From the NCBI GenBank assembly GCA_017540505.1, contig JAFYAW010000012.1, positions 13,847 through 77,846 of the forward strand: a stretch of DNA of 64,000 nucleotides, given 5' to 3'. The position numbers and the translations under genes are program-made. The notes beneath the pieces were generated by a model. The model was not told the DNA's origin. It did no database searches and saw nothing but the letters and a program-made list of their open reading frames with translations. This document shows, one piece after another, positions 1,665-25,779 of the stretch; the stretch's first letter is position 1; each line of letters opens with the position of its first letter. The DNA comes from Bacteroidales bacterium. GTDB taxonomy: Bacteria > Bacteroidota > Bacteroidia > Bacteroidales > WCHB1-69.

Positions 1665-1676
1665 ATTTTTCTGATT

Positions 1677-3975: not shown

Positions 3976-4398
3976 ATGAAACTCATTCAGAAAATCAAAG
4001 AGAAAAAGCAACAGTTGATCCGGTTCTTGTTCGGCTCGTTCTCCGCCACCGCTCTGATGTTTACCTTTCAGGCTTGCTATGGGCCGCCGACTTTCGAAGA
4101 GGAAGTCCAGATTTTTGGCGTTGTCACAGATGCCGAAACCCAAGAGCCCGTGGAAGGTATCGCCATTGGTTTTGGAGAAGGAGTGCCGGAGGGCATAATA
4201 GACACGACCGACAACACTGGCTCCTTCGGAGATGCTAACCCCAAGTACATTCTATGGTTCGACACTTACCATGTCTATCTATGGGATACCGACAGCACAG
4301 AACATGGCCTGTATGAGTCGAAGACCACCACGCTTTCATTCGAAGACCTGCATTCACCCATCCAGCTGACAGTCAACCGGGTTCATGAAGACGAATAG
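3976..4398 (+). CDS. small putative lipoprotein, radical-SAM-associated
   Basis: 140 aa. Basic N-terminus, hydrophobic stretch ending in Cys (ATALMFTFQAC), then an acidic beta-rich body (VQIFGVVTDAETQEPVEGIAIGFG). Overlaps the next gene by 14 nt. Confidence 0.6.
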   Translation: MKLIQKIKEKKQQLIRFLFGSFSATALMFTFQACYGPPTFEEEVQIFGVVTDAETQEPVEGIAIGFGEGVPEGIIDTTDNTGSFGDANPKYILWFDTYHVYLWDTDSTEHGLYESKTTTLSFEDLHSPIQLTVNRVHEDE

Positions 4399-5443
4399 GC
4401 GAAACCCTTTCAAGAGATGTCTGTTCCGTATCTTCCGTCGGAATGAGACCGCCATTCACGAACTGAATTACCTGTTTTGGGAATGTACCTGGCGGTGCAA
4501 TTTGTCGTGCCGGCACTGCGGCTCCGACTGCAAGACCGAATCCTGTGTCCAGGACATGCCCTTTGCCGACTTCCTCAACGCCATAAAACCTTTGGAAAAA
4601 CGCTATCCGCGCAATACCACCGTCATCGCCATCACGGGTGGCGAGCCGCTGTTGCGCAAGGACTTGGCCGATTGCGGGCGAGCCTTGCGCCAACACGGTT
4701 TCCATTGGGGCATCGTCACCAATGGCATGTTGTACGACGAAACGCGCCACAAGGAGCTTCTGGCAGCGGGCTTAGGTTCCGTCACCGTGAGCTTGGATGG
4801 TTTGGAAGAGACCCACAACTGGCTCCGCCAGCATCCGGAGAGTTTTCAGCGTGCCTTGCGTGCGTTGAAGCTCATAGCCAGTGCGCCGCAGCTCAACTAC
4901 GACGTGGTAACCTGCGTGCACCAACGCAATCTGGCGGAACTTCCAGCCCTCAAGGAGGTGCTCATCGCCAACGGTATCCGGCACTGGCGGCTCTTCACCA
5001 TCGCCCCCATCGGACGCGCCGCCCACGACCACGAGCTACAACTCACCCGCGCACAGGTGGAATCCATGTTCCAGTTCATCGCCGACACACGCCGCGAAGG
5101 GAAAATCGACATCAAATTCAGTTGTGAAGCTTATACGGGCAAATATGAGGAGAGCGTTCGCGACAGCTATTTCTTCTGCCGCGCCGGCATCAACATTGGC
5201 TCCGTGCTCATCAACGGCGACATCTCCGCATGCCCCAACATCAACCGTTCATTCGTGCAAGGCAACATCTACCATGACGACCTTATGGATGTGTGGGACA
5301 ACCGTTTCCAAGTCATGCGCGAACGTGAGTGGATGCGCTGCGGTCCCTGCGCCCGCTGTACCGAATACAAGCAATGCTTGGGTGGGGCCATGCACCTCCG
5401 GGAAAGCCGAGGAGAGAACATCATGCGCTGTTGGAAGTTTTGA
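4385..5443 (+). CDS. radical SAM protein with C-terminal Cys-rich (SPASM/twitch-like) region
   Basis: 352 aa. CNLSCRHC matches the CX3CX2C radical SAM cluster motif. GGEPLL is a SAM-binding motif. C-terminal cluster RCGPCARCTEYKQC. Confidence 0.8.
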   Translation: MKTNRRNPFKRCLFRIFRRNETAIHELNYLFWECTWRCNLSCRHCGSDCKTESCVQDMPFADFLNAIKPLEKRYPRNTTVIAITGGEPLLRKDLADCGRALRQHGFHWGIVTNGMLYDETRHKELLAAGLGSVTVSLDGLEETHNWLRQHPESFQRALRALKLIASAPQLNYDVVTCVHQRNLAELPALKEVLIANGIRHWRLFTIAPIGRAAHDHELQLTRAQVESMFQFIADTRREGKIDIKFSCEAYTGKYEESVRDSYFFCRAGINIGSVLINGDISACPNINRSFVQGNIYHDDLMDVWDNRFQVMREREWMRCGPCARCTEYKQCLGGAMHLRESRGENIMRCWKF

Positions 5444-5521: not shown

Positions 5522-6574
5522 ATGAAAAAAATCCTGATTACCGGAGGTGCCGGTTTCATCGGCTCCCATGTTGTAAGACTTTTCGTCAACAAATATCCCG
5601 ATTACGACATCTATAACTTAGACAACCTTACATACGCCGGGAACCTCGAAAACCTGACCGATGTGGAAGGAAAAACCAACTACCATTTCATCAAGGGCGA
5701 TATTGCCGATCAGGATTTTATCATGAAAATCTTTCAGGAGCATCAGTTTGACGGGGTCATCCACTTGGCTGCCGAGTCACACGTGGACCGTTCCATCACC
5801 GACCCGATGACTTTCGTGCACACCAACGTGTTAGGCACCGTGCATCTGCTGAATGCCGCCCGCACCATTTGGAACGGCAATTGGGAAGGCAAGAAATACT
5901 ACCAGATCTCCACGGATGAGGTTTACGGAGCATTGGGGGCTACAGGCGCATTCCAGGAGACCACCCCATACAACCCGCACAGTCCCTACTCTGCCGCCAA
6001 GGCCAGTGCCGACCATTTCGTGCGCGCCTACCACGACACATACGGCATGCCGACCGTCATCAGCAACTGCTCCAACAACTATGGTCCGTACCAGTTTCCA
6101 GAAAAGCTTATTCCTTTGTTTATCAATAATATAAAACACAATAAACCGCTTCCTGTGTACGGTCAGGGCATCAACGTGCGTGACTGGCTCTACGTGGAGG
6201 ACCATGCCGAGGCCATCGACCTCATCTTCCACAAGGCCGCTCCCGGCTCTACCTACAACATCGGCGGCAATAACGAGTGGCGCAACATCGACCTCATCAA
6301 GAAGCTGATCGAGATCATGGACCGCAAGCTGGGCCGTCCAGAAGGCACTTCGCTGGCTTTGATTACCTACGTCACCGACCGCGCCGGCCACGACCTACGC
6401 TATGCCATCGACCCTACCAAGATCAAGAACGAGTTGGGCTGGCAGCCGAGAGTGAAGTTCGATGAAGGCTTCGAGAAAACCGTGGACTGGTACTTAGCCA
6501 ACGAGGAGTGGTTCAACCACGTCACCTCTGGAGCCTACGTGGACTACTACAAGAAAATGTACGAGGGACGATAG
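5522..6574 (+). CDS. rfbB: dTDP-glucose 4,6-dehydratase
   Basis: 350 aa. GGAGFIGSH Rossmann motif, SDR catalytic context YSAAKASAD (YxxxK), and LDNLTYAGNLENL typical of RfbB. Confidence 0.9.
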   Translation: MKKILITGGAGFIGSHVVRLFVNKYPDYDIYNLDNLTYAGNLENLTDVEGKTNYHFIKGDIADQDFIMKIFQEHQFDGVIHLAAESHVDRSITDPMTFVHTNVLGTVHLLNAARTIWNGNWEGKKYYQISTDEVYGALGATGAFQETTPYNPHSPYSAAKASADHFVRAYHDTYGMPTVISNCSNNYGPYQFPEKLIPLFINNIKHNKPLPVYGQGINVRDWLYVEDHAEAIDLIFHKAAPGSTYNIGGNNEWRNIDLIKKLIEIMDRKLGRPEGTSLALITYVTDRAGHDLRYAIDPTKIKNELGWQPRVKFDEGFEKTVDWYLANEEWFNHVTSGAYVDYYKKMYEGR

Positions 6575-6604
6575 TCGGCAACGATCCCATAACCTTGCAG
6601 GAAC

Positions 6605-8038
6605 ATGGTTTTCAGCTCGCTGACCTTCTTATTCCTATTTCTCCCCATTGTTATATGCCTGTTGGCACTTTGCCGGCGGGTGCCCTATCAGAACACACTC
6701 CTGTTCGCCGCCAGCATCCTCTTTTATGCTTGGGGCGGTGTCAGCTACACGCTGATTCTCATTGTATCCATATTGGTAAACTACATTTGCGGTTTGCTCA
6801 TCGCCCGACGACGGCGGCGGACCTTCTGGTTAGTGTTAGCCATCATCTTGGATTTGTCCGCGTTAGCATTCTTCAAATACGCCAACTTCATAGTGGACAA
6901 CTTCAACATCTTGGGTGGCATGTTCGGCATGTCGCCAATCACTCTGCGGAACATAGTATTGCCCATCGGCATCTCCTTCTATACCTTCCAGGGCATCTCA
7001 TACATAGTGGACGTATATCGGGGTCAGGTGCAGGCGCAGACCAACCTCATCAAATTAGGCACCTATATTGCTCTGTTCCCGCAACTGATAGCCGGGCCCA
7101 TCATCCGATACCATGAAATCGAGCCGCAACTCTCGAACCGTGATTTCAGCTTCGGGAACATGTATGAGGGCATTCGCCGCTTCTGCATCGGGTTGGCACG
7201 TAAAGTTTTCATCGCGAACCAATTGGCTATCATTGCCGATGACATCTTCGCACGCGCACCGGAAACCATGCCCTGGTGGGCGCTTTGGATCGGCGCCCTT
7301 TGCTACTCGCTGCAAATCTACCACGACTTTGCCGGCTATTCCGACATGGCCATCGGATTGGGCCGGATGTTCGGGTTCCGATTCCCCGAGAACTTCAATT
7401 TCCCGTATCTTGCCACCTCCATCCGTGAATTCTGGCGGCGCTGGCACATCACACTCTCGGCCTGGTTCAAAGATTATCTATACATCCCATTAGGAGGAAA
7501 CCGCAAGGGTGAGAAACGCACTTTTCTCAATCTCTACATCGTGTTCTTCCTCACTGGCCTCTGGCATGGGGCCAGCTGGACCTTCGTGGTATGGGGCCTT
7601 CTGCACGGTTCCTTCATGGTGATAGAGCGCATTGGCTTCGACCGTGTTTTGGGCAAAGTCTTCAAGCCCGCACAACACTTGTACGCACTGCTCGTGGTGG
7701 TCATCGCGTGGGTCTTCTTCCGTGCCGACGGAATAACCTACGCGTTGCACTATGTGCGGCAGATGTTCGCCTTCGTTGGCGGCTCCGGCAGCGGTCTCTT
7801 CCTGCAACAATATCTCCAGCCTTCGTTTATCCTGTTCGCCACGGTAGGCGTAGTCGGATGCACCCCGCTGTTCGCCCGCTGCCATGAAGCCCTTCAGACA
7901 GCCATCGTTAGAGGCAACAAACCTCTTTGGCACCTGCAGCACATCGGCACCATCGCCGCCATCGCCATCCTGTTGTTGACAGTAAGCAGCTTTTTAGTCG
8001 CTGGCAGTTACAATCCTTTCATCTATTTCCGATTCTAA
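6605..8038 (+). CDS. MBOAT family O-acyltransferase (AlgI/DltB/PatA-like)
   Basis: 477 aa polytopic membrane protein. Conserved MBOAT histidine context FWRRWHITLSAWFKDYLYIPLGGNR. Confidence 0.85.
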   Translation: MVFSSLTFLFLFLPIVICLLALCRRVPYQNTLLFAASILFYAWGGVSYTLILIVSILVNYICGLLIARRRRRTFWLVLAIILDLSALAFFKYANFIVDNFNILGGMFGMSPITLRNIVLPIGISFYTFQGISYIVDVYRGQVQAQTNLIKLGTYIALFPQLIAGPIIRYHEIEPQLSNRDFSFGNMYEGIRRFCIGLARKVFIANQLAIIADDIFARAPETMPWWALWIGALCYSLQIYHDFAGYSDMAIGLGRMFGFRFPENFNFPYLATSIREFWRRWHITLSAWFKDYLYIPLGGNRKGEKRTFLNLYIVFFLTGLWHGASWTFVVWGLLHGSFMVIERIGFDRVLGKVFKPAQHLYALLVVVIAWVFFRADGITYALHYVRQMFAFVGGSGSGLFLQQYLQPSFILFATVGVVGCTPLFARCHEALQTAIVRGNKPLWHLQHIGTIAAIAILLLTVSSFLVAGSYNPFIYFRF

Positions 8039-14720: not shown

Positions 14721-16061
14721 TTATTTGCATCCGATGCAGATGCGGTCTCCGATACCATAGCTGCTGATGGCACCGCTGTTCCGTTTGATGATGATTTTCA
14801 ACTGCACACCATATTTCTGCGCGATATATCGGTACGTGTCGCCCTTCTGTAGCGTATGGTACTCTTCCGGCGACTTGGTGCTCTTCATCTCCAAATAGAC
14901 AACCTCATCCTCAATCGGTTCCGAATCATCATAAACATCATTATACAAACGAAGGTTTTTCTCGGACATCTGCATGGATGTGGCTAACGACTTGTAGGTG
15001 TCACCCTTCCGGGCGATGAGAAACTTGGTTTTGTTGTTCTCATACACAGGACGGCTCGTATAGGGATAATACGCCGATTTGTACGGCACGGCATAGGGAT
15101 TGAGGACGAAAACATTCTTGCCCTGCACCTTTTCCGGCTCCGGCTCCGAAACCTTCTGCACGATGGTGTCCACCTTTGTCGGCTTGGGTTTCTCCGACTT
15201 ATTGACGATGACCTGAATGCCGTTCACCTCCATCGTGTCGGCTTTCGGCTTGGCAGCGGGTTCCGACTTGGGTTCGGGCTTCGCCGGCTTCGTCTCTACC
15301 GTTTCCGTTTGGACAGGTTTTGTCGGCTTTGTTTCTACAGGTTCAGTTTGGACTGGTTTTGCCGGCTGGGTTTCTACCGGTTTCACAGGAGCCGTGGCCA
15401 CGGTTTCAGGTTGTGTGGGCTTGGTTTCTGTTTTCTCCACAGGCTTTGTGACCGGTGTTTGAGTGGTGCTGTTAGACGTAATAGGGTTGGTTTTAGGCAC
15501 AGAAGCAGATGCCAACGCCGCCGTGTCGCCCATCCGCTGGGCCACCTTGCGGTCATAATGCATCAGATAGTATTTTTCGATGATGGAGATCAGCGTGTCG
15601 GCGTAGCGCGGATTGCCGGAATAACCGGCCTCCTTCAGCCCGTGCGCCCAGGATTTGTAGTCGGTAATGGGCAGATAGAAGAGTTTGATATAGCGGCTGC
15701 GCTGCGACAGAAACAGCGAATGGTCGCGGTAGGACTCCTCCACCGAAGCATATTTCCGGAAGCAGTAGTCGCTACTATGGTTCTCCGTCTCATAAAAGGT
15801 GGGACCGGTCCACTCTTTCGTGTGGCACATGATGCCGAAATGGTTGTTCGCCTCCTTGGCGATGCGGTTGGTGCCGCATTTGGAAGCATAGATGGCCTGG
15901 GCCAACGTGATGCTGGCAGGCACCTTATACTGTTCCATCTCCTTCATGGCCAAATCCTTATACTCATCGATATAATCGTAAATCTGGTCTTCCAACGTGT
16001 ACTGGGCATAGGTGGCGGCCATGCCGAACAGGAGGATGCTCAAAATCAGAATTCGTTTCAT
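14721..16061 (-). CDS. glucosaminidase (GH73-like) domain protein with Pro/Thr/Lys repeat linker and two LysM domains; catalytic Glu replaced
   Basis: 446 aa. Signal peptide, then VPASITLAQAIYASKCG...NNHFGI, which aligns to the paralog's IPASITLAQGIFESACG...NNHFGI. C-terminal LysM repeats (IARKGDTYKSLA..., HTLQKGDTYRYIAQKYGV). Confidence 0.8.
   Translation of the reverse strand: MKRILILSILLFGMAATYAQYTLEDQIYDYIDEYKDLAMKEMEQYKVPASITLAQAIYASKCGTNRIAKEANNHFGIMCHTKEWTGPTFYETENHSSDYCFRKYASVEESYRDHSLFLSQRSRYIKLFYLPITDYKSWAHGLKEAGYSGNPRYADTLISIIEKYYLMHYDRKVAQRMGDTAALASASVPKTNPITSNSTTQTPVTKPVEKTETKPTQPETVATAPVKPVETQPAKPVQTEPVETKPTKPVQTETVETKPAKPEPKSEPAAKPKADTMEVNGIQVIVNKSEKPKPTKVDTIVQKVSEPEPEKVQGKNVFVLNPYAVPYKSAYYPYTSRPVYENNKTKFLIARKGDTYKSLATSMQMSEKNLRLYNDVYDDSEPIEDEVVYLEMKSTKSPEEYHTLQKGDTYRYIAQKYGVQLKIIIKRNSGAISSYGIGDRICIGCK
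15237..15464 (-). repeat. imperfect coding tandem repeat (linker TKPxxPVxTExVE units)
   Basis: Residues about 200-275: TQTPVTKPVEKTETKPTQPETVATAPVKPVETQPAKPVQTEPVETKPTKPVQTETVETKPAKPEPKSEPAAKPKAD. The DNA shows repeated GGTTT(C/T)(T/G)(T/C)... units. Confidence 0.7.
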
Positions 16062-16074
16062 AATCGGATTGTAT

Positions 16075-17160
16075 TTAATGTTTTAACAATATCTGGTCGC
16101 CGGGATGGATGATGGAATTCTCATCCAGCGAATTATACTTGAAGATGTAGTGCAGCTGCACGCCGTAACGCTGCGCGATGTATCGCAGGGTCTCGCCAGC
16201 CTGCACGATGTGCACCTTGTTGTTGTGCGTCTTCGCCTTGGCCTCGATATAGACAATCTCGTTCTCCACCGGCTGCGAGTTGGGGTCAAGCACGTCGTTG
16301 AACTTGCGGAGGCTCACCGCAGCCACCTGCACATCGCCGGCAATCTTCTCGTATGTGTCACCCTTCTGGGCGATGATGAAATAGGTGTGGTTGTTCTCGA
16401 AGACCTTGCGGTAGCTGAAAGGACTGGCTCCAGCGGGATACTCGCTGCCGATGGCCGTAAACACCTTGGTCGCTGTTTTGGCAGGCGGCACCGTGATGGG
16501 CTTGTCCGGCGTAGCGGGTTTCACCGGCTGGATGGGTTTTGTGGGCGGGACAGAAGGGCTCATGCCGCCGTTATCCATCGGTTTCCCGCCATTCCCGTAC
16601 GGGTTTTCCGCCACCTCCTGTCCGGCCTCCCCTTTCATGCACACGGTATCCAACCGGGCAATGTTGAAGCGTTCGATCAGGCTGATCAGGCGGTCGGCGT
16701 ACTGCGGGTTGGTGGCGTAGCCGTCGGCCTTGAGCGTGCGGGCCCAGGCCTGGTAATCCAGAATGTCGAGCTGGAAGAGGTTGGCATAGCGCTTGCGGGT
16801 GGTCAGGAACTTCGAGTGGTCGTTGTAGGAACCGGCCACATCCTCGTATTTGCGGAAGCACTCCTGAAGCTCGTCGTCGTCAACGAGAATCGTGTCGCCC
16901 ATCCAGTCCTCGTGGCACTTGATGCCGAAGTGGTTGTTGCCCTCCGTGGCCAGCCGACTCATGCCGCAAGCACTCTCAAAGATTCCTTGCGCCAGCGTGA
17001 TGCTAGCCGGAATGCGGTACTCGTGCATCTTATCCATGGCCACATGCTGGTATTTCACAATATAATCCCGAATGTCCGCCTCAGTATATTGGGCAAGCAC
17101 ATGATTGGAAACCAGCCCTGCCATCACAAGCAGACATCCGATACAGAATATTTTTTTCAC
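16075..17160 (-). CDS. glucosaminidase (GH73-like) + 2x LysM peptidoglycan hydrolase
   Basis: 361 aa. Signal peptide. LAQGIFESACG retains the GH73 catalytic Glu context. LysM repeats (IAQKGDTYEKIA, HIVQAGETLRYIAQRYGV). Confidence 0.85.
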   Translation of the reverse strand: MKKIFCIGCLLVMAGLVSNHVLAQYTEADIRDYIVKYQHVAMDKMHEYRIPASITLAQGIFESACGMSRLATEGNNHFGIKCHEDWMGDTILVDDDELQECFRKYEDVAGSYNDHSKFLTTRKRYANLFQLDILDYQAWARTLKADGYATNPQYADRLISLIERFNIARLDTVCMKGEAGQEVAENPYGNGGKPMDNGGMSPSVPPTKPIQPVKPATPDKPITVPPAKTATKVFTAIGSEYPAGASPFSYRKVFENNHTYFIIAQKGDTYEKIAGDVQVAAVSLRKFNDVLDPNSQPVENEIVYIEAKAKTHNNKVHIVQAGETLRYIAQRYGVQLHYIFKYNSLDENSIIHPGDQILLKH

Positions 17161-17200: not shown

Positions 17201-18214
17201 TTATTTTCTACCCATTTCCAAATGCAACTTCCTGAGCTCAAACGCCTCCATCACCATCTTCGTATAAAACTCCTTAATATCCAATTTATTGTATTCCACC
17301 TGACCGGGCACGATGCTCATCGCCGTCTGGCCGGGAATCGTATTCACCTCCAGGAAGTAGGGGATGCCGTCGGTTTCGGAGAGGATGAAGTCCACCCGCA
17401 CTACGCCGTGGCAGTCAAGGTTGCGGAAGATGCGGGCGGCGTAGTCGCTCATGAGGGCGGTCTTGTCGTCGTCGATGACGGCGGGCGTGATGAGTTTGTG
17501 GCCCACGGCGGTGTATTTGGCGTTGTAGTCGTAGAATTCGTTGGAGGCCACCACCTCGGTGACAGCCAGCACCTGCACCTTGCCATATACGGAGGTCACG
17601 CCGCAGGTGAACTCGCGCCCACGCACGAACTTCTCCACTATCAGCTGGTTGTCGTATTTGAAGGCCTCCGCGAACGCGCCTGTCAGCTCCTCACGGTTGT
17701 GCACTTTCGTCACGCCGACGCTGGAGCCCGAGTTGCAGGCCTTCACGAAGCACGGGTAGCCGCACACCGCTTCGATGCGCTCGAAGTCTATCGGGTCGTT
17801 CACGTAGAAATGCAACGACGGCGAGATGGGGATGCCCAAGTCGGCCACCGCCAGATTGCAGTAGTATTTGTTGAACGTCAGGGCGGAGCAGAAGACGCCG
17901 CAGCCGGTGTAGGGCAGTCCCACCAGCTCGAAATAGGCCTGCAGCCGCCCGTTCTCGCCGGGCGTGCCATGGATGGCGATGAAGGCCGCATCGAAGGTCA
18001 CCTTCCCGTCGGGGAGGGCCAGCGTGAAGTCGTTCTTGTCCACCTGCCACACGCGCCCGTCGGCATCGGTGTAGTGCCAGTCCGCCCCTTTGAAATGGAT
18101 CAGATAGGGGTTGAACAGGTTCCTGTCCAACTGGTTGAAGATGTTGTCAGCTGTCTTGAGGGATATTTCATATTCGCCGGAATCCCCGCCGGCAATAAGA
18201 GCTATATTATACAT
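17201..18214 (-). CDS. ddl: D-alanine--D-alanine ligase
   Basis: 337 aa. N-terminal IALIAGGDSGEYEISL, ATP-grasp motifs (PCFVKACNSGSSVGV, VRVDFIL..G.PYFLEVNTIPG). Confidence 0.9.
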   Translation of the reverse strand: MYNIALIAGGDSGEYEISLKTADNIFNQLDRNLFNPYLIHFKGADWHYTDADGRVWQVDKNDFTLALPDGKVTFDAAFIAIHGTPGENGRLQAYFELVGLPYTGCGVFCSALTFNKYYCNLAVADLGIPISPSLHFYVNDPIDFERIEAVCGYPCFVKACNSGSSVGVTKVHNREELTGAFAEAFKYDNQLIVEKFVRGREFTCGVTSVYGKVQVLAVTEVVASNEFYDYNAKYTAVGHKLITPAVIDDDKTALMSDYAARIFRNLDCHGVVRVDFILSETDGIPYFLEVNTIPGQTAMSIVPGQVEYNKLDIKEFYTKMVMEAFELRKLHLEMGRK

Positions 18215-18288: not shown

Positions 18289-19308
18289 TCAAACAGCGGA
18301 ATGTGCATAATACCCGCCCGTCTTGTTGGAGCCTTCACGGTCGATGAGGCCGTCCTCCTTCAGCAGGCGGATGTAGCGGTAAACGCTGCTCGGAGCCAGC
18401 CCGGTTTGTTTCTGGATGTCCTGCGCCGAACAGCGCGGATGAGTGGCAATGTAGTCGTAAATGGCCTTGTAGGTCTTCTCGTTTCGAGGCTGTCCCCATT
18501 CCTCCTGTTGGGTTTTCCCCTGCAGCAAAGGAATCGCACTTTCACGATAAGCATCCGTAATGAGAAGTTGCATATTCCATCCACCATCCCCTCGCAAATC
18601 GACATCCTTTTTGCTAAAATCCGCCACTGCATGACGCAACACAAAGCAATTGCGGGATATGGGCACGATGCCCGCCGTGGCAAGCATATTCTGCAACTGG
18701 GAAAGAGACCCGTAACGGTGATACTTCCTCCCATCCAGAAGGTACACATTCGTGAAGTTGCCATTCTGCTGGCAGTATATTATATCCGCAACCTGGACCA
18801 GCAGATGTTGGCCTTTTTCATCTATCACCTCTATCTGCATATTCTCCTTATACAGCAGCGTTTCGGATATCTTCTTGAGGCGGTGTGTCTCGCGAAGCGC
18901 ACAAATGGTAAAGGATAAGAGCACAAAGCCTGCATCCCGCAGAAAGACACAGATAGAACTGTCTATAAAGAACAACTCTGCTCCCGACACCTTCAACCGC
19001 AACAGATTCGCATGCGATTGCGGGTACACAAGGGCTATTTCGCCCAGTGCCGCCAACAAAGTGGTTAGCAGACTGGCAATCACATATTTCCAAGTCTTAT
19101 TTTGGGCGTACAGCAGAGGGAACCAGAGTTTCTCATTCACAAGCATGGCTGCCAGCACTATGATGGCGCACAGGTACTCCTTGTACAGGCACGGGTAGGC
19201 CACCGGACGCAATAGGGAAACGTGGTGAAAGGCGAATAGCACTATACCACAAAAAACAAGTTGTATCACTACCCCAAATGAAATCCGGATTGCTTCTTTT
19301 TTCTTCAT
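18289..19308 (-). CDS. membrane-anchored LytTR-domain transcriptional regulator with C-terminal winged helix-turn-helix
   Basis: The ORF-track TTG start at 19332 overlaps the -7 box, so I prefer the ATG at 19308 (MKKKEAIRISF...). About 4 hydrophobic helices, a LytTR core (IEVIDEKGQHLLVQVADIIYCQQNGNFTNVYLLDGRKYHRYGSLSQLQNML...ISRNCFVLRHAV) and a wHTH (HPRCSAQDIQKQTGLAPSSVYRYIRLLKEDGLIDREG). Confidence 0.75.
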   Translation of the reverse strand: MKKKEAIRISFGVVIQLVFCGIVLFAFHHVSLLRPVAYPCLYKEYLCAIIVLAAMLVNEKLWFPLLYAQNKTWKYVIASLLTTLLAALGEIALVYPQSHANLLRLKVSGAELFFIDSSICVFLRDAGFVLLSFTICALRETHRLKKISETLLYKENMQIEVIDEKGQHLLVQVADIIYCQQNGNFTNVYLLDGRKYHRYGSLSQLQNMLATAGIVPISRNCFVLRHAVADFSKKDVDLRGDGGWNMQLLITDAYRESAIPLLQGKTQQEEWGQPRNEKTYKAIYDYIATHPRCSAQDIQKQTGLAPSSVYRYIRLLKEDGLIDREGSNKTGGYYAHSAV

Positions 19309-19329
19309 TTTCTTTCTGTTTTTCGCCCG

Positions 19330-19337
19330 CAAAAATA
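19330..19337 (-). promoter_or_regulatory. Bacteroidetes -7 promoter box (TAnnTTTG)
   Basis: The minus strand reads TATTTTTG 22 nt upstream of the ATG at 19308. Confidence 0.45.
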
Positions 19338-19342
19338 CGATT

Positions 19343-19512
19343 TTATTCTCTCATTTTGGGGCCGTTTCGTCATAATGTGACGAAATCGGTTTGGGTGGAA
19401 ATTCTTGAAATTTAAAAAAGACCGTAAAATAGTGGTTTACAATCATATACAACATAATTTATTCTCTCATTTATCCTCTCATTTATTCTCTCATTTTGGG
19501 CCGTTTCGTCAC
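19343..19512. promoter_or_regulatory. cluster of direct, inverted and tandem repeats; candidate LytTR operator sites
   Basis: CCGTTTCGTCA at 19362-19372 (+). CCGATTTCGTCAC at 19377-19389 (-). CCGTTTCGTCAC at 19501-19512 (+). A 30-nt direct repeat TTATTCTCTCATTTTGGG(G)CCGTTTCGTCA at 19343-19372 and 19483-19511. Three in-phase 12-nt units AT(T/C)CTCTCATTT at 19461-19496. Confidence 0.55.
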
Positions 19513-19562
19513 ATTTTCGCCCCTTCGGCCTTTAGTGTTGGTATTTGTGTCTGGGAATGTGT

Positions 19563-19570
19563 TATCTTTG
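19563..19570 (+). promoter_or_regulatory. Bacteroidetes -7 promoter box (TAnnTTTG) with upstream TTTG
   Basis: TATCTTTG at 19563-19570 with TTTG at 19544-19547 (-33-like spacing). About 90 nt upstream of the ATG at 19662. Confidence 0.5.
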
Positions 19571-19590
19571 GGGCGGAAAAACAACATTAA

Positions 19591-19700
19591 CTCCCAACTC
19601 CCTTAACTCCTTAGTTCCTTAACTTCTTAACTTCTTAACTATAACATCAAACCTCAAACACATGAAAAAGCAAACCCTTTTCCTCGCCCTCCTCCTCGTC
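19591..19700 (+). repeat. leader + signal-peptide repeat, copy 1
   Basis: CCAACTCCCTTAACTCCTTAGTTCCTTAACTTCTTAACTTCTTAACTATAACATCAAACCTCAAACACATGAAAAAGCAAACCCTTTTCCTCGC. Near-identical to 21059-21165. Confidence 0.85.
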
Positions 19701-21014
19701 CTTGCCCTTGCCGGGCGGGGACAAGTAGTAGAAGAACTACCGAATTCACCGTCAGACCAAATGTTCTGCGTTTCGCATCCTGTACCCAATATTGTCTATT
19801 GCGGAGGATTGAAAGGACTGTACAAATCTGACGATGATGGGGAGACCTGGAACAAAATCTTTGAATACGACTCGGTTGTGGCACCATTTAAGGGAATCTG
19901 TTTTTTTGATGACACTCTTGGATTTGCTTCCGCGGCTGCCAACCCCAAAAATGCTGGAGCATTTATAGGAACTCCCGAGGACAACAAGTTATATAGAACA
20001 ACGGACGGCGGGATTTCATGGGCTCTCATTGACACCAGCCATTATTTCACCAATATTCGTTTTATAAACAAGGATACTTTGTTTGCAATAGATGAATCCC
20101 CATATCTGTTAAAAAATCCTCGTTCAGATGGGAATTTATATAGAAGTGTGGATGGAGGATGGTCTTGGGAGGAATTGGATGTACTGGGCAATAAAATAAG
20201 TGACTATTCTTTTGTCCCCCCATCAATTGTTTATGCTGTCAAAGGATGTGATCATTGTTACATTACACCACCATATAATTATATTCCTATAGTGTACAAA
20301 AGTACCGATTGGGGTACATCATGGACAACAATATTTTCAGCAGAAAATTTTCAATCTAAAGCACCCATAGAAATAGATCAGATTCATTTTTTTGAGGATA
20401 GGGATGGGGTGCTGATGGGGCATCAGCAAATTTTTACGGAAGATGATTTTACCACATTTGAGATTGCGAATTCAGGGTATTATGTGTCTAATCCTGGTGG
20501 ACCTTATCTTGTTATTCAGGCAAAATACTTGAATAGTGGTTATTGTGTCGCCACATCATGGGCATGGGACCCACACGATATCTTACGTCCCAGTACCATA
20601 CGGTTAAGCAGAGACAAAGGGCATCATTATTTAAAAATAAATTTGGGAGAGGATGTTAGTGACGTGTCAGGATGCGAACAAGACACCACATTCTTTGTTG
20701 TTTATTCTTGGGGCCCCAGCGTTTATAGGATACGTGGCGCTAATTTCCCGAATGTGGCAGTGGAAGATCATAGGAGTCAGGTGGAGGTTTTGGTGTCGCC
20801 TAACCCTGTGACAGACAGGCCCCGCATTCTCTGTGAAAAACCCGTTCAGACAATTCGTGTCTTGGATATGGCAGGCAGGCTAAAGTATCAGCAAACGCCG
20901 CCCATTCCACAAACTGATTTTCTTCTCAACACCTCATCCTGGCCATCAGGTCTCTATCTGCTGGAACTTTTCACCACAAAAGGAAGGACTACTGTAAAGA
21001 TTGTGAAAAAATAA
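19662..21014 (+). CDS. BNR/Asp-box beta-propeller protein with T9SS C-terminal sorting domain
   Basis: 450 aa. Signal peptide MKKQTLFLALLLVLALAG. Four Asp-boxes (SDDDGETW, TTDGGISW, SVDGGWSW, STDWGTSW). CTD: VLVSPNPVTDRPRILCEKPVQTIRVLDMAGRL...GLYLLELFTTKGRTTVKIVKK. Confidence 0.75.
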   Translation: MKKQTLFLALLLVLALAGRGQVVEELPNSPSDQMFCVSHPVPNIVYCGGLKGLYKSDDDGETWNKIFEYDSVVAPFKGICFFDDTLGFASAAANPKNAGAFIGTPEDNKLYRTTDGGISWALIDTSHYFTNIRFINKDTLFAIDESPYLLKNPRSDGNLYRSVDGGWSWEELDVLGNKISDYSFVPPSIVYAVKGCDHCYITPPYNYIPIVYKSTDWGTSWTTIFSAENFQSKAPIEIDQIHFFEDRDGVLMGHQQIFTEDDFTTFEIANSGYYVSNPGGPYLVIQAKYLNSGYCVATSWAWDPHDILRPSTIRLSRDKGHHYLKINLGEDVSDVSGCEQDTTFFVVYSWGPSVYRIRGANFPNVAVEDHRSQVEVLVSPNPVTDRPRILCEKPVQTIRVLDMAGRLKYQQTPPIPQTDFLLNTSSWPSGLYLLELFTTKGRTTVKIVKK

Positions 21015-21058
21015 CACCGCTATTTCATCTTTAAAACAGAATTTTTCTCAAAATCACC

Positions 21059-21165
21059 ACCGCCAACTCTCTTAACTCCTTAGTTCCTTAACTTCTTAAT
21101 TATAACATCAAACCCCCAAAAAACATGAAAAAGCAAACCCTTTTCCTCGCACTCCTGTTTTTTTT
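21059..21165 (+). repeat. leader + signal-peptide repeat, copy 2
   Basis: CCAACTCTCTTAACTCCTTAGTTCCTTAACTTCTTAATTATAACATCAAACCCCCAAAAAACATGAAAAAGCAAACCCTTTTCCTCGC. Confidence 0.85.
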
Positions 21166-21712
21166 GTTGTCGTTCGGAAATTCATTGTACGGACAAAAAG
21201 AGAATAAACATAGTTTGGGACTGTTGTTTGGATATTCAACAATTCCGGGTATTTCCTATAAATATATGCCTACGGAAGATTTTATTATGCAAACAGATTT
21301 GGCAACAAAAATACTTCTTACAGGCAATTTTTTTCATTCAAAAGCAAAATACATCGTTCTACCTCTGATAGAGATTTCCGAAAATTTATTCTATCAACAT
21401 CTATTTGCTGAAAAAGGATTTGTCACATTTCATTACATGATTGGCGGGGGAATTAGTTGTGGTCTCCAACCATTTCAACCTATGATTTGGAAAATCGGCA
21501 GTAACGCTTTTGCTGGTGTCGAATTCCGTTTTTCAAGTAGTCCAGTATCTCTACAACTGGATTTCAGACCCGGATATGGAGTTCTATTTTGGTCTGAAAA
21601 AACTCAAAATGAAATAAATGAGCTATGGAATATACTTACTCCCGGTTTGAGTAAAAGCCCTCAAAGTTGTTTTGACTGGTCTTTAAATTTCATTATAAGA
21701 TTTAGATTATAA
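21125..21712 (+). CDS. small exported protein, possible outer-membrane beta-barrel
   Basis: 195 aa. Signal peptide MKKQTLFLALLFFLLSFGNSLYGQ. Alternating hydrophobic pattern and an aromatic-rich C-terminus (SLNFIIRFRL). I recognise no domain. Confidence 0.5.
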   Translation: MKKQTLFLALLFFLLSFGNSLYGQKENKHSLGLLFGYSTIPGISYKYMPTEDFIMQTDLATKILLTGNFFHSKAKYIVLPLIEISENLFYQHLFAEKGFVTFHYMIGGGISCGLQPFQPMIWKIGSNAFAGVEFRFSSSPVSLQLDFRPGYGVLFWSEKTQNEINELWNILTPGLSKSPQSCFDWSLNFIIRFRL

Positions 21713-21729
21713 ACAAATTATTCTTAAAA

Positions 21730-24700
21730 ATGAAAAATATGAAAAAACTCTTATCTTGCTATTTCGTTGTTTTACTTGGTTTGTTTGCCAACATTCAAGC
21801 GCAGACCTACATTCAGGCTTTTGACAGCGTCTTTGCCAATGTGAGTAGGGCTGGGGCAAATACAGGAATACTCTATGAACGTGTTCTGCCGTTTGCCAAT
21901 TTAACCAACTTCAACTCCTTGTTATCCAATCCAGACACCAGCAATTGTTCACATTTTTTCAGAGCTGCAAATGAACTTCGACGTGCAACATTCAATTTGC
22001 CATGTCCCATTGTTCCCAAAGATAGTATCTTAAAAATCTGTGAATCAGATCCTGATTTGATTCAAATTGGAATGTTGCATTTTGATATTAACACTTTTGA
22101 CGCCAATATGTTACATCAAAAATTATTTTTTGATGGAGATAGCATCCTACAAGAAGACACTTCTGTCTTTGGATCTTTATACAATGAGGAAATGCTTTTT
22201 GTGGCTTCTCCTTTAAGAAGCATCATAAACACAGATAACCCTCTGTTTTATGTTAACTCAATGTTATATTTTGATAACACACATGATAAGATTCAAAAAA
22301 TATATGCAGATTTTGATGATGGTCTTGGGTATAGGCAAATTTTAGTGGATGACATTATTCCCGTTGAATATGACGAAGATGGAATAAAAGTGCTTCGTTT
22401 TCAAGTGAGTTTGAAAAAAGGTGCTACATTATACGCGTATGCGTCAATTGAGGTTAAAACCCGCAATCCTGGAAATGCAGAAAGCGTATATCCTTATGTG
22501 GATGATTATATCGGAAATAATGCAATTGAGGCAAAAATCACCCCTGCAAATCCTTATGATGGAGGCGTGTTCTCAAAAGTCAAAGGTTTTGTACGTATTT
22601 ACTATTCAAATTCAGACAAAATCTTAAGAAAACCGCTGCTCATTATAGATGGTTTCGATCCTATGAATGAGAGGCAATTTGAAACAAGCACTTCTGAAGA
22701 AAAGAAATCTCTATGGGAGATGTTGTATTATAAAAATCAAAATAATCAAACACTCCATCTTGGTTTGCAACTTTTGAATTTGGGATATGATTTGGTCATG
22801 CTTGATTTTCCAGAAGGAGGAACTTACATTGAGCAGAATGCTATGGTTTGTGTGGAGGTAATAAACAGGTTGAACAATCGGTTAAAGCAAAATGGAAGCA
22901 ATGAGAATATTGTTGTTGTTGGACCGAGTATGGGAGGGCAAATTGCCCGTTATGCCCTCACGTATATGGAACAGAATTCAAATGAGAACACGAATTTTGG
23001 TAATCACAACACAAGACTGTGGATTTCGTATGACTCGCCGCACCAAGGAGCCAATATTTCAATAGGTGCACAAGCACTTATAGAACACTATAGTAATGAA
23101 GAAGAGGATGAAGGTGTCTCAAAGATTTGGAAAAATACATTGTGTTGCAAAGCGGCTCAACAAATGTTAATTCATCATAGAAAGGAAACTGCACAACAGA
23201 TTTTCAACACTTACTATGCTCAAATTCAAAACCTCAATATTAGTTCAAATGGGTACCCTATAAATAGTCGTAATATTGCTATTTCAAATGGTAGTTTTAA
23301 TAATATCCCCAATGGTGTGGCACATCAAATCGCATTTGAAAGCATAATAACTATTGGTGTTTACACGTTGGATTTAAGAATTAGAAATGTAGTCAATTCG
23401 GGGACAGGAGATGTTTTTGACTATACTCATTGGATTACGTTTATTCCAATACATTATCATATTCCTTTTACTAATAATTTTGGGAAATGTAGTCCAGATG
23501 TAGCACCAGGTGGTTTCTATAAAACCTTTGAGCAAATAGAAGACGCAGTAAAAAAAATGAAATATATTGGACATTTTGTTCTTTCTGTCAATAATCAAAC
23601 ATCTCATTGTTTCATGCCCATTACCAGTACGTTGGACATCAGCGGTAACATGAACTACTGTACAGACATATCCACTCGGGATTTGGTTGCGGAAGGTTTA
23701 ACTCCGTTTGACAGTTATACTGGAGTTATTGACAGTAATATGGAACATGTTACATTCAATCAGAATATCTTCAATTATCTCATTAACGAAATTGAAACTT
23801 ATATTCAGGGCAACCGCGAAGTGACGATGTGCACTTCGCCTACATACACGTTGCACCTTCCGCAGGATTCTTCCGCTACAGTAACGTGGCTGTGCAGCGA
23901 CAACCTGCAAATAAATACAGGAAATGACCCGTACACTGTGGCCTTATCGCCCTTATCCATAGGTGATGGATGGATTAGTGCCGAAGTATCCACTCTCAAA
24001 CATCGAAAACGCCTTGCCAATTATCCTGTTCATATCATCTCAAACACCTTACCTACAATTGATACCCTTCAGTATTCAGGAGATACGCTTATGGTGGACA
24101 CCACATACGTATTGGGAGATTCTGTATTTGTGGATAGTGGGAAAGTCATGACTATCACAGGCATTCTCCACTGTGCGCCTTCCGCCCGCATCATCGTGCG
24201 GCCCGGCGGGAAGCTTGTGGTGGATGGCGGCACACTCACCGCCGCCTGCGATGCGGAGATGTGGCCCGGCATCACTGTGCTGGGGCATTCGGACAAGCGG
24301 CAGCTAGCCCAAAACCAGGGCAGTGTGGAGCTGCGCAACGGGGCCGTCATCGAACACGCCCGCTGCGGCATCACCCTCGGCGCGGATGAGGACGACCTAC
24401 TCCACACCGGCGGCATCCTCTCCGCCACGGACGCCTTCTTCCGCAACTGCGCACGCGCGGTACACTTCCGCCCATACATGGATTCCACCGCAGGCGTATG
24501 CTGCCGTGCGAACAAGTCCTTCTGCACCCGTGTCACTTTCGTGGTGGACAGCAGCAACCGCTTCGCACAGAACAACACCGCATTTGGCGAACACCTCCTC
24601 CTGCAAGGTGTGTATTCCATCAAATTTCAGGCGTGCTCCCTTTTGAACGTCGGTTTTGTCGGCGGGTTGCAGAATTGCGGCATCCGGGCCTTGGGGGCCA

Positions 24701-25779
24701 CTTTCGGGCTGAGAGACGATGATGACTTGTCATACCCGCCCAACCCCAACATCATCGTGCACCGCTCACTGGTCTCCGGCTTCCACTATGGCGTGTATGC
24801 CTCCGACACCCTCAGCGGGACGGGACCATGCCTCCTCAACACGGTGTTCCGCAACAACATCTACGGGGCCCATCTTCACGACTGCCTGTACACTGTCATA
24901 GAGCGATGCAGTTTCCACCTAGACAGCCTGCCGTTCGTTTCCAACAAGCCTACCATTTACGGCCTGTATCTGTCCAATAGCTATTGGGCGGAATTTGAGG
25001 GCGACACTTTCATTCGGGCCTATAATGTCCCTATCCCAGTGAGCAGGGGAATTTACGCCAGCAATAACACCATGGGTGATGTCATTGTCTATCACAACCT
25101 GTTTGAGAACCTCACCTACGGCATCCATGCCGCCGGCAACAACGGCGACAGCACAAGGGGCCTCCTGTTTTCGTGCAACGAGTTCCTGCACAACAACTAC
25201 GGCATCTACATTCCCAGTTCCTCCACCGTAGCCATGCGGCAGAAGTACCGTGGGTATTCCGCCGCCAACTCCTTCACGGGTGTCACAAACTACGGAATCT
25301 ACAATGCCGGTCCACAGAATATAAACTACTACAACAGCACGGTTGGCCTTGATCCGTCACTGATTTATGGGAGTGTGACCCAGCATTATGGGGCACCCTC
25401 CGGCGGCTGTTTCTTCTCGTGGGACACCATACTCCCCATCGTTGATCCGGAGCCCATCAAGACGGAGGGGGACAGCACGGCGGACACCCCGGACATGGAC
25501 CCTCCGAAGTCGCTTTCGCTGGGTGTTGGCACCGCCGGCACGGGATTAGACGATATGAGGATTTTCCCCAATCCGAACAACGGCCAGTTCTCCATTCACA
25601 GCTCACAATCCACCATTTACCGGATACGGCTTTACGACGTATATGGGAAGCTGTTGAAAACGGTGAATGTGAATGCCAACATGGCGGAGGTTGACGTTCA
25701 TGAGCTGTGCGCGGGCGTGTATGTGCTGCGCGTGGAGACGGACAGCGGCGCGGTGGTGAAAAGGGTGGTGAAAGAGTAA
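21730..25779 (+). CDS. large T9SS cargo: lipase-like alpha/beta-hydrolase region + parallel beta-helix region + C-terminal sorting domain
   Basis: 1349 aa. Signal peptide. PLLIIDGFDP...VVVGPSMGGQIARYAL (GxSxG)...YDSPHQGA. Beta-helix-like repeats (NNIYGAHLHDC, HNNYGIYIP, CGITLGA, CGIRALGA). CTD: MRIFPNPNNGQFSIHS...GVYVLRVETDSGAVVKRVVKE. Confidence 0.8.
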   Translation: MKNMKKLLSCYFVVLLGLFANIQAQTYIQAFDSVFANVSRAGANTGILYERVLPFANLTNFNSLLSNPDTSNCSHFFRAANELRRATFNLPCPIVPKDSILKICESDPDLIQIGMLHFDINTFDANMLHQKLFFDGDSILQEDTSVFGSLYNEEMLFVASPLRSIINTDNPLFYVNSMLYFDNTHDKIQKIYADFDDGLGYRQILVDDIIPVEYDEDGIKVLRFQVSLKKGATLYAYASIEVKTRNPGNAESVYPYVDDYIGNNAIEAKITPANPYDGGVFSKVKGFVRIYYSNSDKILRKPLLIIDGFDPMNERQFETSTSEEKKSLWEMLYYKNQNNQTLHLGLQLLNLGYDLVMLDFPEGGTYIEQNAMVCVEVINRLNNRLKQNGSNENIVVVGPSMGGQIARYALTYMEQNSNENTNFGNHNTRLWISYDSPHQGANISIGAQALIEHYSNEEEDEGVSKIWKNTLCCKAAQQMLIHHRKETAQQIFNTYYAQIQNLNISSNGYPINSRNIAISNGSFNNIPNGVAHQIAFESIITIGVYTLDLRIRNVVNSGTGDVFDYTHWITFIPIHYHIPFTNNFGKCSPDVAPGGFYKTFEQIEDAVKKMKYIGHFVLSVNNQTSHCFMPITSTLDISGNMNYCTDISTRDLVAEGLTPFDSYTGVIDSNMEHVTFNQNIFNYLINEIETYIQGNREVTMCTSPTYTLHLPQDSSATVTWLCSDNLQINTGNDPYTVALSPLSIGDGWISAEVSTLKHRKRLANYPVHIISNTLPTIDTLQYSGDTLMVDTTYVLGDSVFVDSGKVMTITGILHCAPSARIIVRPGGKLVVDGGTLTAACDAEMWPGITVLGHSDKRQLAQNQGSVELRNGAVIEHARCGITLGADEDDLLHTGGILSATDAFFRNCARAVHFRPYMDSTAGVCCRANKSFCTRVTFVVDSSNRFAQNNTAFGEHLLLQGVYSIKFQACSLLNVGFVGGLQNCGIRALGATFGLRDDDDLSYPPNPNIIVHRSLVSGFHYGVYASDTLSGTGPCLLNTVFRNNIYGAHLHDCLYTVIERCSFHLDSLPFVSNKPTIYGLYLSNSYWAEFEGDTFIRAYNVPIPVSRGIYASNNTMGDVIVYHNLFENLTYGIHAAGNNGDSTRGLLFSCNEFLHNNYGIYIPSSSTVAMRQKYRGYSAANSFTGVTNYGIYNAGPQNINYYNSTVGLDPSLIYGSVTQHYGAPSGGCFFSWDTILPIVDPEPIKTEGDSTADTPDMDPPKSLSLGVGTAGTGLDDMRIFPNPNNGQFSIHSSQSTIYRIRLYDVYGKLLKTVNVNANMAEVDVHELCAGVYVLRVETDSGAVVKRVVKE

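Follow-up and report, generated by a model that had tools for sequence, protein, structure and literature searches.

A predicted membrane-anchored LytTR and winged-helix regulator facing a repeat-rich divergent spacer upstream of surface-protein genes in Bacteroidales

RESULTS

Organization of the locus and the regulator protein

The window analyzed here is a 64,000-nucleotide (nt) stretch from a Bacteroidales bacterium (GenBank assembly GCA_017540505.1, contig JAFYAW010000012.1, positions 13,847 to 77,846 of the forward strand), and its subject is a regulator gene on the minus strand (window positions 18289 to 19308) that faces a plus-strand gene (19662 to 21014) across a divergent spacer of 353 nt. 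The facing gene codes for a BNR/sortilin-like protein with a C-terminal sorting domain of the type IX secretion system (T9SS; Por_Secre_tail/TIGR04183, E 1e-6). The regulator is predicted to be a membrane-anchored, one-component factor, and the repeated boxes in the spacer are probably its operator. It is 339 amino acids (aa) long, with an ATG at 19308 and a stop codon at 18289 to 18291. A TTG start listed at 19332 would overlap a predicted -7 promoter box; the homologues begin with MKKKEAIR.

We modeled the regulator with AlphaFold2 on a 31-sequence family alignment (mean pLDDT confidence score, 83.8), and in the model the protein is a transmembrane (TM) bundle followed by a LytTR-fold domain and a winged helix-turn-helix (wHTH) domain. 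The N-terminal membrane domain (18838 to 19308, minus strand; aa 1 to 157) has four predicted TM helices, which appear as four long helices (residues 3 to 33, 42 to 67, 72 to 104, and 110 to 156) joined by loops of 4 to 8 residues, and the LytTR domain comes directly after the fourth. The LytTR-fold domain (18523 to 18837, minus strand; aa 158 to 262) is beta rich in the model. It has a Pfam LytTR match (PF04397) over aa 169 to 234, at 29.7 bits versus a cutoff of 22.6 and covering profile positions 4 to 68 of 98, and it superposes on the LytTR domains of AgrA (4xqj; E 1e-5; target TM-score, 0.79) and ComE (4cbv) when the PDB is searched with Foldseek. A disordered linker (residues 263 to 276) leads to the wHTH (18292 to 18480, minus strand; aa 277 to 339), modeled over residues 277 to 335 as a three-helix bundle with a beta wing (helices at 277 to 289, 295 to 302, and 306 to 318; strands at 322 to 324 and 333 to 335) and carrying the wing motif GSNKTGGY. 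Pfam recognizes it at aa 281 to 325 (HTH_24, E 4.5e-8; HTH_IclR, E 2.3e-7), Foldseek matches it to IclR- and MarR-type wHTHs in the PDB, and profile matches in the PDB include IclR (1mkm) and XylR (4ija). An earlier note on this DNA, made from the sequence alone, had read about four hydrophobic N-terminal helices followed by LytTR and a C-terminal wHTH, and Pfam, the model, and Foldseek all agree with it. Pfam gives no receiver-domain (Response_reg) match in the regulator protein.

Within the TM domain, R34, the Y42-K43-E44-Y45 stretch, and E90 are polar positions that are invariant across the family, and R124 is nearly so. The wHTH is the most conserved domain of the family and the loop between TM3 and TM4 is hypervariable; among close relatives, the TM3-TM4 loop region (aa 100 to 125) is 46 to 58% identical, versus 83 to 100% for the wHTH. 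Overall among these relatives, divergence at codon positions 1 and 2 of the regulator gene exceeds half of that at position 3. This pattern suggests that the part presumed to be the sensor is under relaxed or diversifying selection.

Sequence boxes and predicted promoters in the divergent spacer

The spacer holds two types of repeated motif, B boxes with the core TTTCGTCA(C/T)AT and A boxes that read ATTCTCTCATTT. The B-type sequence CCGTTTCGTCA is found exactly at 19362 and 19501, its only two exact copies in the 64 kb, and the palindrome TTTCGTCA-N5-TGACGAAA at 19365 to 19385 is a single occurrence versus 0.02 expected. The A-type ATTCTCTCATTT is present at 19345 and in three in-phase 12-nt units at 19461 to 19496, and when up to one mismatch is allowed there are 5 matches versus 0.34 expected. 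No further good B boxes are found elsewhere in the window. The earlier note had placed three B-type copies and the three tandem units at these positions, with the first two copies forming the palindrome, and all of this stands. Its consensus as written is one base off: the plus-strand copies read CCG-TTTCGTCA (11 nt) and the minus-strand copy reads CCGA-TTTCGTCA, that is, CCGATTTCGTCA (12 nt). The element shared by the two orientations is TTTCGTCACATT, directed at each promoter (19374 to 19385, minus strand; 19504 to 19515, plus strand). A 30-nt direct repeat reported in the same note (19343 to 19372 and 19483 to 19511) is likewise present and carries a 1-nt indel. The 9-mer bound by the LytTR regulator AlgR, CCGTTCGTC, does not occur in the window; its counterpart at 19362 and 19501, CCGTTTCGTC, is longer by one T, as had been noticed.

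On the regulator side, a predicted Bacteroidetes-type -7 box, TATTTTTG (19330 to 19337, minus strand), is followed by a single A-type unit, A1 (ATTCTCTCATTT; 19345 to 19356, plus strand), which lies between this box and the B-type palindromic site CCGTTTCGTCA-TAATG-TGACGAAATCGG (19362 to 19389). The minus-strand TTTCGTCACATT is the regulator-directed half of the palindromic site, and the distance from the start of the palindrome's TGACGAA core to that of the regulator's -7 box is 48 nt. The cargo side has the three tandem A-type units, AT(T/C)CTCTCATTT (19461 to 19496, plus strand), which number 2 or 3 in relatives, and the B-type box CCGTTTCGTCACATT (19501 to 19515, plus strand), whose TTCGTCA core begins 58 nt ahead of the -7 box on that side. 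The cargo-side core promoter (19563 to 19583, plus strand) consists of the predicted -7 box TATCTTTG (19563 to 19570) and a conserved GGGCGGAAAAACA. Both -7 boxes fit the Bacteroidetes housekeeping element TAnnTTTG, both are conserved in four closely related loci (L001 to L004), and the A and B boxes lie between them, as proposed from the sequence at the outset.

The regulator's -7 box and the next ~13 nt form one arm of a 21-nt inverted repeat (19317 to 19337 and 19563 to 19583), the other arm being the cargo-side core promoter. We considered an invertible promoter flanked by this repeat and rejected it: each arm is simply one of the divergent core promoters (-7 box plus GGGCGRAAAAAC), which have TAnnTTTG-sGGGCGrAAAAAC in common, and the end with A1 and the palindrome faces the regulator gene or its remnant in every copy of the module. 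An RNA element in the spacer was also rejected, since Rfam at permissive E-values gave two chance-level matches far below the gathering score, and a search of the spacer for terminator-like structures found none.

Conservation of the spacer in close relatives

The regulator protein was found only in Bacteroidales metagenome assemblies. The close relatives, L001 to L004, have regulators 79 to 93% identical to that of the window in amino acid sequence, and contig names (RUI and RUG) suggest a rumen origin for L001 and L002. Their spacers can be aligned with that of the window to ~10 nt past the cargo-side -7 box, after which the sequences diverge, except for a leader element described below. In these relatives the boxes are 92 to 100% identical to those of the window (92 to 98% for the block of A1 and palindrome). 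The central AT-rich spacer and the third codon positions of the regulator gene are 69 to 71% and 80 to 83% identical, respectively, in L002 to L004, so that conservation of the boxes exceeds that of near-neutral sites. Between the cargo B box and the -7 box, conservation falls to its lowest level in that half of the spacer, with 57% identity in L002 and L003. The distance between them is fixed: in all 17 copies of the module in the clade of the window, the -7 box lies exactly 47 nt after GCCGTTTCGTCACATT.

Three further contigs, L005 to L007, end 61 nt upstream of the regulator gene, inside a box, and a variable junction at this point was considered and rejected. These are independent Logan contigs, and they likely share an end point because the exact 30-nt intra-spacer repeat breaks k=31 assemblies. 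We note that the spacer will often drop out of short-read assemblies.

Boxes, spacing, and a lipoprotein partner in distant family members

A profile search for homologues of the regulator gave 35 clusters at 90% identity, and an exhaustive HMMER search gave 149 cluster representatives at E<1e-30, of which ~100 are full length. Shorter forms with TM and LytTR parts and no wHTH also occur. By these sequence searches, the LytTR-wHTH family is sizeable and unnamed, and the architecture is not a one-off but is shared by at least 100 clusters at 50% identity; neither NCBIfam nor Pfam has a model for the whole regulator.

We compared nine distant loci (L008, L009, L012 to L017, and L030), whose regulators are 24 to 37% identical to that of the window. 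In all of these except L015, the regulator is divergent from a gene for a Cys-rich lipoprotein of 162 to 177 aa, across a spacer of ~230 to 390 nt. The lipoprotein genes are all on the minus strand (L008, 2201 to 2707; L009, 2208 to 2708; L012, 21 to 554; L013, 2176 to 2688; L014, 2188 to 2700; L016, 2201 to 2695; L017, 127 to 621; and L030, 2186 to 2674), and their products share the motifs GHxxxxCxGC...HxxCxxxGxxC...LNIPAQxVYRDxxxLQFTFTGLFY, the last of which is C terminal. L015 has just an 81-aa version with the C-terminal motif. NCBIfam and Pfam have no model for this lipoprotein, and tblastn found none in the window or in L001 to L005. The genes that come next in most of the distant loci code for sorting-domain proteins, an RHS/SpvB toxin-like protein, or other proteins of very large size. 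In L030, a PDDEXK_2/Rpn-like gene (recombination-promoting nuclease or transposase-like; 4146 to 5060, minus strand) lies directly 3' of the regulator.

The box core is concentrated in these spacers, with TTCGTCA at 4.55 per kb in 13 spacers versus 0.14 per kb in the rest of these loci (141 kb). Exact TTCGTCA is present in the spacers of L008, L013, L014, L016, L017, and L030, whose regulators are 25 to 37% identical to that of the window. These represent four of seven independent distant clades, for which a binomial estimate gives roughly 1e-4 at ~0.04 expected per spacer. Two more clades have one-mismatch variants of the core, and within each locus the two sides carry an identical or closely similar variant: TTCGTCC occurs twice in L015, and L009 has TTTGTCA twice (tandem TTTGTCATAT) and TTCATCA twice (TTCATCATAT). 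The cargo-side position in L008 is occupied by ACCGTTCGTCA, which contains the exact AlgR 9-mer. The wing sequence GSNKTGGY tracks the clades that keep TTCGTCA-like boxes when recognition helix and wing are compared with box variants, in a small sample.

Spacing, taken from the start of the box to the start of the -7 box, is also kept. On the cargo side it is 58 to 59 nt, give or take one helical turn: 58 nt in the window and L001 to L004, 58 and 48 nt in L009, 59 nt in L030, 66 nt in L015, and 69 nt in L008, the last counted by hand to TTTTTTTG, in which the consensus TA is missing. On the regulator side, the TGACGAA distance is 38 nt in L008, L013, and L014, 47 to 48 nt in the window, L016, and L017, and 59 nt in L030, and the boxes of L009 are at 58 and 68 nt; these distances change in steps of about one helical turn. 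L030 was picked once the spacing rule had been set down, with its sequence still unread, and it fitted, with a TTTCGTCA-AAAA-TGACGAAA palindrome and a cargo-side TTCGTCA as predicted. The A units recur in an equivalent position in L016, which has TCTCTCA/ACTCTCA 110 and 87 nt before the -7 box, versus 100, 88, and 76 nt in the window, and A-like repeats can be picked out by eye in the L009 and L015 spacers. The earlier note had made conservation of the boxes beside orthologous regulators a point on which its interpretation could fail, and the boxes are kept at fixed distances both in L001 to L004 and in distant clades.

Genes behind the module and other genes in the window

In the clade of the window, the gene behind the module differs in almost every genome and always codes for an envelope or secreted protein. 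The first gene codes for a BNR-type T9SS cargo protein in the window and L020, another sorting-domain cargo in L001, a BspA-LRR cargo in L028, and an S74-like sorting-domain protein followed by a C10 protease in L004. An outer membrane protein (OMP) beta-barrel is found at this position in L002, L025, and L029, an MBOAT-DltD gene in L003, a lipoprotein in L019, and a DUF6383-tailed protein in L022 and L027. Unnamed secreted proteins are present in L018, L021, L023, and L024 and behind a second copy of the module in L003. The T9SS islet is thus not a conserved partner of the module.

The 5' leader of the first gene in the window has a pyrimidine-rich element, TTAACTCCTTAGTTCCTTAACTTCTTAAC(TTCTTAAC) (19603 to 19639, plus strand), of which the 29-nt TTAACTCCTTAGTTCCTTAACTTCTTAAC occupies 19603 to 19631. 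A second copy lies at 21072 to 21100, before gene 2, and genes 1 and 2 both start with the signal peptide MKKQTLFLALL. The element recurs in relatives (L001, ~2195 to 2225; L003, ~3640 to 3720, in two copies; and L027, ~6600 to 6640) with unrelated genes behind it, including the MBOAT gene. It could be a translation or stability element, or the trace of cassette recombination.

The earlier note had described an islet of T9SS cargo genes at 19662 to 25779, and two of its three genes do have the sorting domain. These are the first gene and a 1,349-aa PGAP1-like alpha/beta hydrolase (21730 to 25779, plus strand; E 5e-13). The gene between them, gene 2 (21125 to 21712, plus strand), codes for a 195-aa secreted protein that has no family match and lacks a sorting domain. 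On the other side, the gene downstream of the regulator is ddl (17201 to 18214), and there is no separate membrane-inhibitor gene there. The open reading frames (ORFs) from 13.7 to 28.9 kb code for an M23 peptidase, two glucosaminidase-LysM proteins, Ddl, the cargo genes, a PASTA protein, and another T9SS cargo protein. No kinase or receiver is found among them, as had been read from the sequence. The glucosaminidase-LysM genes are tandem paralogs (14721 to 16061 and 16075 to 17160, minus strand), and the first has a long low-complexity linker with repeats such as KPVETKPTKPVQTE.

DISCUSSION

A membrane-anchored factor and its candidate operator

We favor the reading in which the regulator is a membrane-anchored one-component factor and the spacer repeats are its operator, serving both its own promoter and the divergent one; we think this probably correct, although well short of assured. 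The conserved polar residues of the TM bundle, together with its short outer loops, would detect a signal in or at the membrane, and this would alter the occupancy of the A and B boxes by the cytoplasmic domains. At its own promoter the regulator would work through A1 and the palindromic site. It would switch on the divergent promoter, from which a gene for a secreted or cell-surface protein is expressed, by way of the tandem A units and the oriented B box that lies ~58 nt ahead of the -7 box. Activation rather than repression is suggested because this box is centered well upstream of the core promoter and the stretch from box to -7 box is not conserved. Binding of the boxes by this protein, autoregulation, the nature of the signal, and the matching of motifs to domains are likewise predictions. 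Control might extend over the whole of 19662 to 25779, as the earlier note proposed; a separate copy of the leader element precedes gene 2. Overall, the interpretation given in that note is partly supported, and each of its parts that computation could check was borne out.

Several observations weigh against this account. The regulator is dispensable in nature, since modules occur beside which it is deleted, decayed, or absent. L003 has a complete orphan spacer without an adjacent regulator (~840 to 1100), 3 kb from its regulator-linked copy. In L027, which has the same ddl context as the window, the regulator is deleted and the boxes are intact (6230 to 6580); an orphan-type flank stands in its place, with the last 7 codons left, and the orphan copies in L003 and L027 share their own ~110-nt left flank. 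In L020 (1085 to 1582), L021 (567 to 939), L023, and L024, the regulators are pseudogenes, with internal deletions of aa 52 to 211 or of aa 55 to 282 with a frameshift, and the boxes and cargo promoter are intact. A 63-aa ORF with the wHTH alone is still open in L021, which also has a homologue of the Cys-rich lipoprotein 3' of the regulator remnant (~1360 to 1855, plus strand). Other observations concern the protein and the boxes themselves. The LytTR match is partial by sequence, and sequence searches of the PDB recover only the wHTH. The ratio of nonsynonymous to synonymous change looks high, and in L002 codon positions 1 and 2 are 90.5% identical to the window, versus 83.3% for position 3. 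No B box is found in the most distant locus, L012, whose palindrome differs, and L016 and L017 have none on the cargo side. The orphan modules and regulator-less variants leave two options: several modules are served in trans by a single regulator copy, or the boxes are read by some other factor.

Alternative readings

The spacer may instead be mainly a portable cassette of promoter, leader, and signal peptide, or a recombination hot spot before surface-protein genes, in which the repeats mark, or are kept by, recombination or duplication and the regulator is incidental. The changing gene behind the module, the full orphan copy so close to the regulator-linked one in L003, the junction of orphan-type flank and the last regulator codons in L027, and the duplication of leader and signal peptide within the window all speak for it. 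Yet no recombinase or integrase gene is recognized beside the module of the window between 13.7 and 28.9 kb (the neighbors in related loci being read from precomputed Pfam tables only), and the constant orientation of the A1 and palindrome end leaves no sign of inversion. The distant clades, moreover, keep a constant partner, the Cys-rich lipoprotein, and yet have TTCGTCA boxes at the same distances from both -7 boxes, which fits operator function and not cassette exchange. We regard a purely cassette-like spacer as unlikely, and note that the two readings are compatible, since a mobile module can still carry an operator.

It is also conceivable, but quite improbable in our view, that an unlinked factor other than this protein reads the boxes as genuine operator sites, and that the LytTR-wHTH protein acts elsewhere or is no DNA-binding regulator at all. 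The modules that stay intact where the regulator is deleted or decayed would be explained in this way, and the weakness of the LytTR match by sequence would agree with it. A scan of JGI metagenomes for the exact composite pattern CTCTCATTT-N3-4-GCCGTTTCGTCA bears on both sides. It found no wider regulon beyond this spacer type, although exact matches were needed and diverged sites would escape, and this lack of a regulon suits an unlinked factor; but this spacer type was also all that it returned (12 of 12 loci), which speaks against such a factor. Against an unlinked factor, box and regulator adjoin in six of the seven distant clades (four with the exact core and two with variants), and the box variant shifts with the clade of the adjacent regulator, being the same or nearly so on both sides: TTCGTCAC in the window, TTCGTCC in L015, and TTTGTCA/TTCATCA in L009.

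Least probable is that the protein binds the boxes as a repressor or purely negative autoregulator, with the A unit and palindrome covering the upstream part of its own promoter and a membrane signal relieving repression: only 7 nt do separate the A1 unit from the -7 box of the regulator, in a place expected to hold a -33 element, and the closest sequence relatives of the C-terminal domain are MarR- and IclR-type wHTH proteins, which are often repressors that bind palindromes, but the cargo B box ends 47 nt before its -7 box with the A repeats further upstream, a typical activator position, the poorly conserved stretch between them argues the same way, and a mixed mode is possible in which the protein represses its own promoter and activates its neighbor.

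A more ambitious form of the membrane-anchored-factor reading goes beyond what we would call likely, and we put it forward as doubtful. It holds both that the family comprises undescribed dual-reader membrane factors, in which LytTR and wHTH each read one motif type (CTCTCA repeats and TTCGTCA boxes), and that in rumen Bacteroidales the unit of regulator, operator, promoter, leader, and signal peptide is a portable cassette placed before interchangeable T9SS cargo or OMP genes, with the orphan operators forming a small regulon in trans.

Relationship to known LytTR and membrane-bound regulators

The closest known counterpart is HigX of Caulobacter crescentus, a membrane-anchored factor with four TM helices and a LytTR domain (4TM-LytTR) that binds an 8-bp inverted repeat, has envelope-related targets, and needs its TM domain for activity (PMC13384398). 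Such 4TM-LytTR proteins were, by the account given there, first noted in a bioinformatic study of LytTR proteins (ref. 23 of PMC13384398). The window protein is predicted to resemble HigX in its four N-terminal TM helices with no sizeable periplasmic domain, its cytoplasmic LytTR domain, and its lack of a receiver. It faces a palindrome and adjoins genes for envelope or secreted proteins, as HigX has an inverted repeat and envelope targets. It differs in its additional C-terminal wHTH, in coming from Bacteroidales rather than Alphaproteobacteria, and in its motifs (TTTCGTCA-N5-TGACGAAA with CTCTCA direct repeats, versus ATGTTASC/GSTACCAT without a spacer), and the likeness is one of architecture. 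We classify the window protein as a variant of the known transmembrane LytTR regulators of the HigX type.

It is not a response regulator of the AlgR/AgrA type, since it has no receiver domain. The LytTR fold is shared with AlgR, AgrA, and ComE, but the window protein is membrane anchored and has no nearby partner kinase. AgrA and ComE sites are two direct repeats ~12 bp apart, unlike the palindrome and distant single copy in the window. The B box resembles the site bound by the AlgR LytTR domain, CCGTTCGTC (PMC4787818), being exact in L008 and having one extra T in the window, and this likeness is one of sequence resemblance only.

Nor is the window protein an HdrRM-type system, since there is no separate membrane inhibitor. 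In HdrRM and BrsRM of Streptococcus mutans, a LytTR factor is tied to a module of 3 to 4 TM helices without a periplasmic domain and there is autoregulation (PMC6193735), but the membrane inhibitor is a separate downstream gene, whereas in the window the TM module is fused to the LytTR domain, ddl is the next gene, and there is the extra wHTH. Transmembrane transcription regulators, including ToxR, CadC, and BcrR, have been surveyed and are enriched in Bacteroidia (PMC10269533). The window protein is predicted to be like these in being a one-component membrane-bound factor acting on promoters beside its own gene. ToxR and CadC have an N-terminal wHTH, a single TM helix, and a periplasmic sensor, in contrast to the window protein, in which the TM helices come first and two DNA-binding-type domains in tandem come last. 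A literature search for factors with LytTR and wHTH in tandem returned nothing relevant. New here are the wHTH after LytTR, a candidate operator that combines two motifs in conserved phase, the lipoprotein partner kept by most of the family, and the cassette-like behavior in the clade of the window.

Implications

Outside a few model systems, little is known of how Bacteroidales regulate genes for T9SS cargo and other surface proteins, and the characterization of membrane-bound LytTR factors has only just begun. The locus described here is a compact and testable system in which a one-component membrane regulator is paired with a precisely predicted two-motif operator, the box-to-promoter spacing is conserved over at least seven clades, and natural knockout variants, with deleted or decayed regulators and orphan operators, are already present in rumen metagenomes. 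If the two domains do read the two motifs, this would be an unusual bacterial factor with two different DNA-binding folds in tandem; if they do not, the proteins would still form a well-defined new subfamily with a predicted binding site, useful for annotation.

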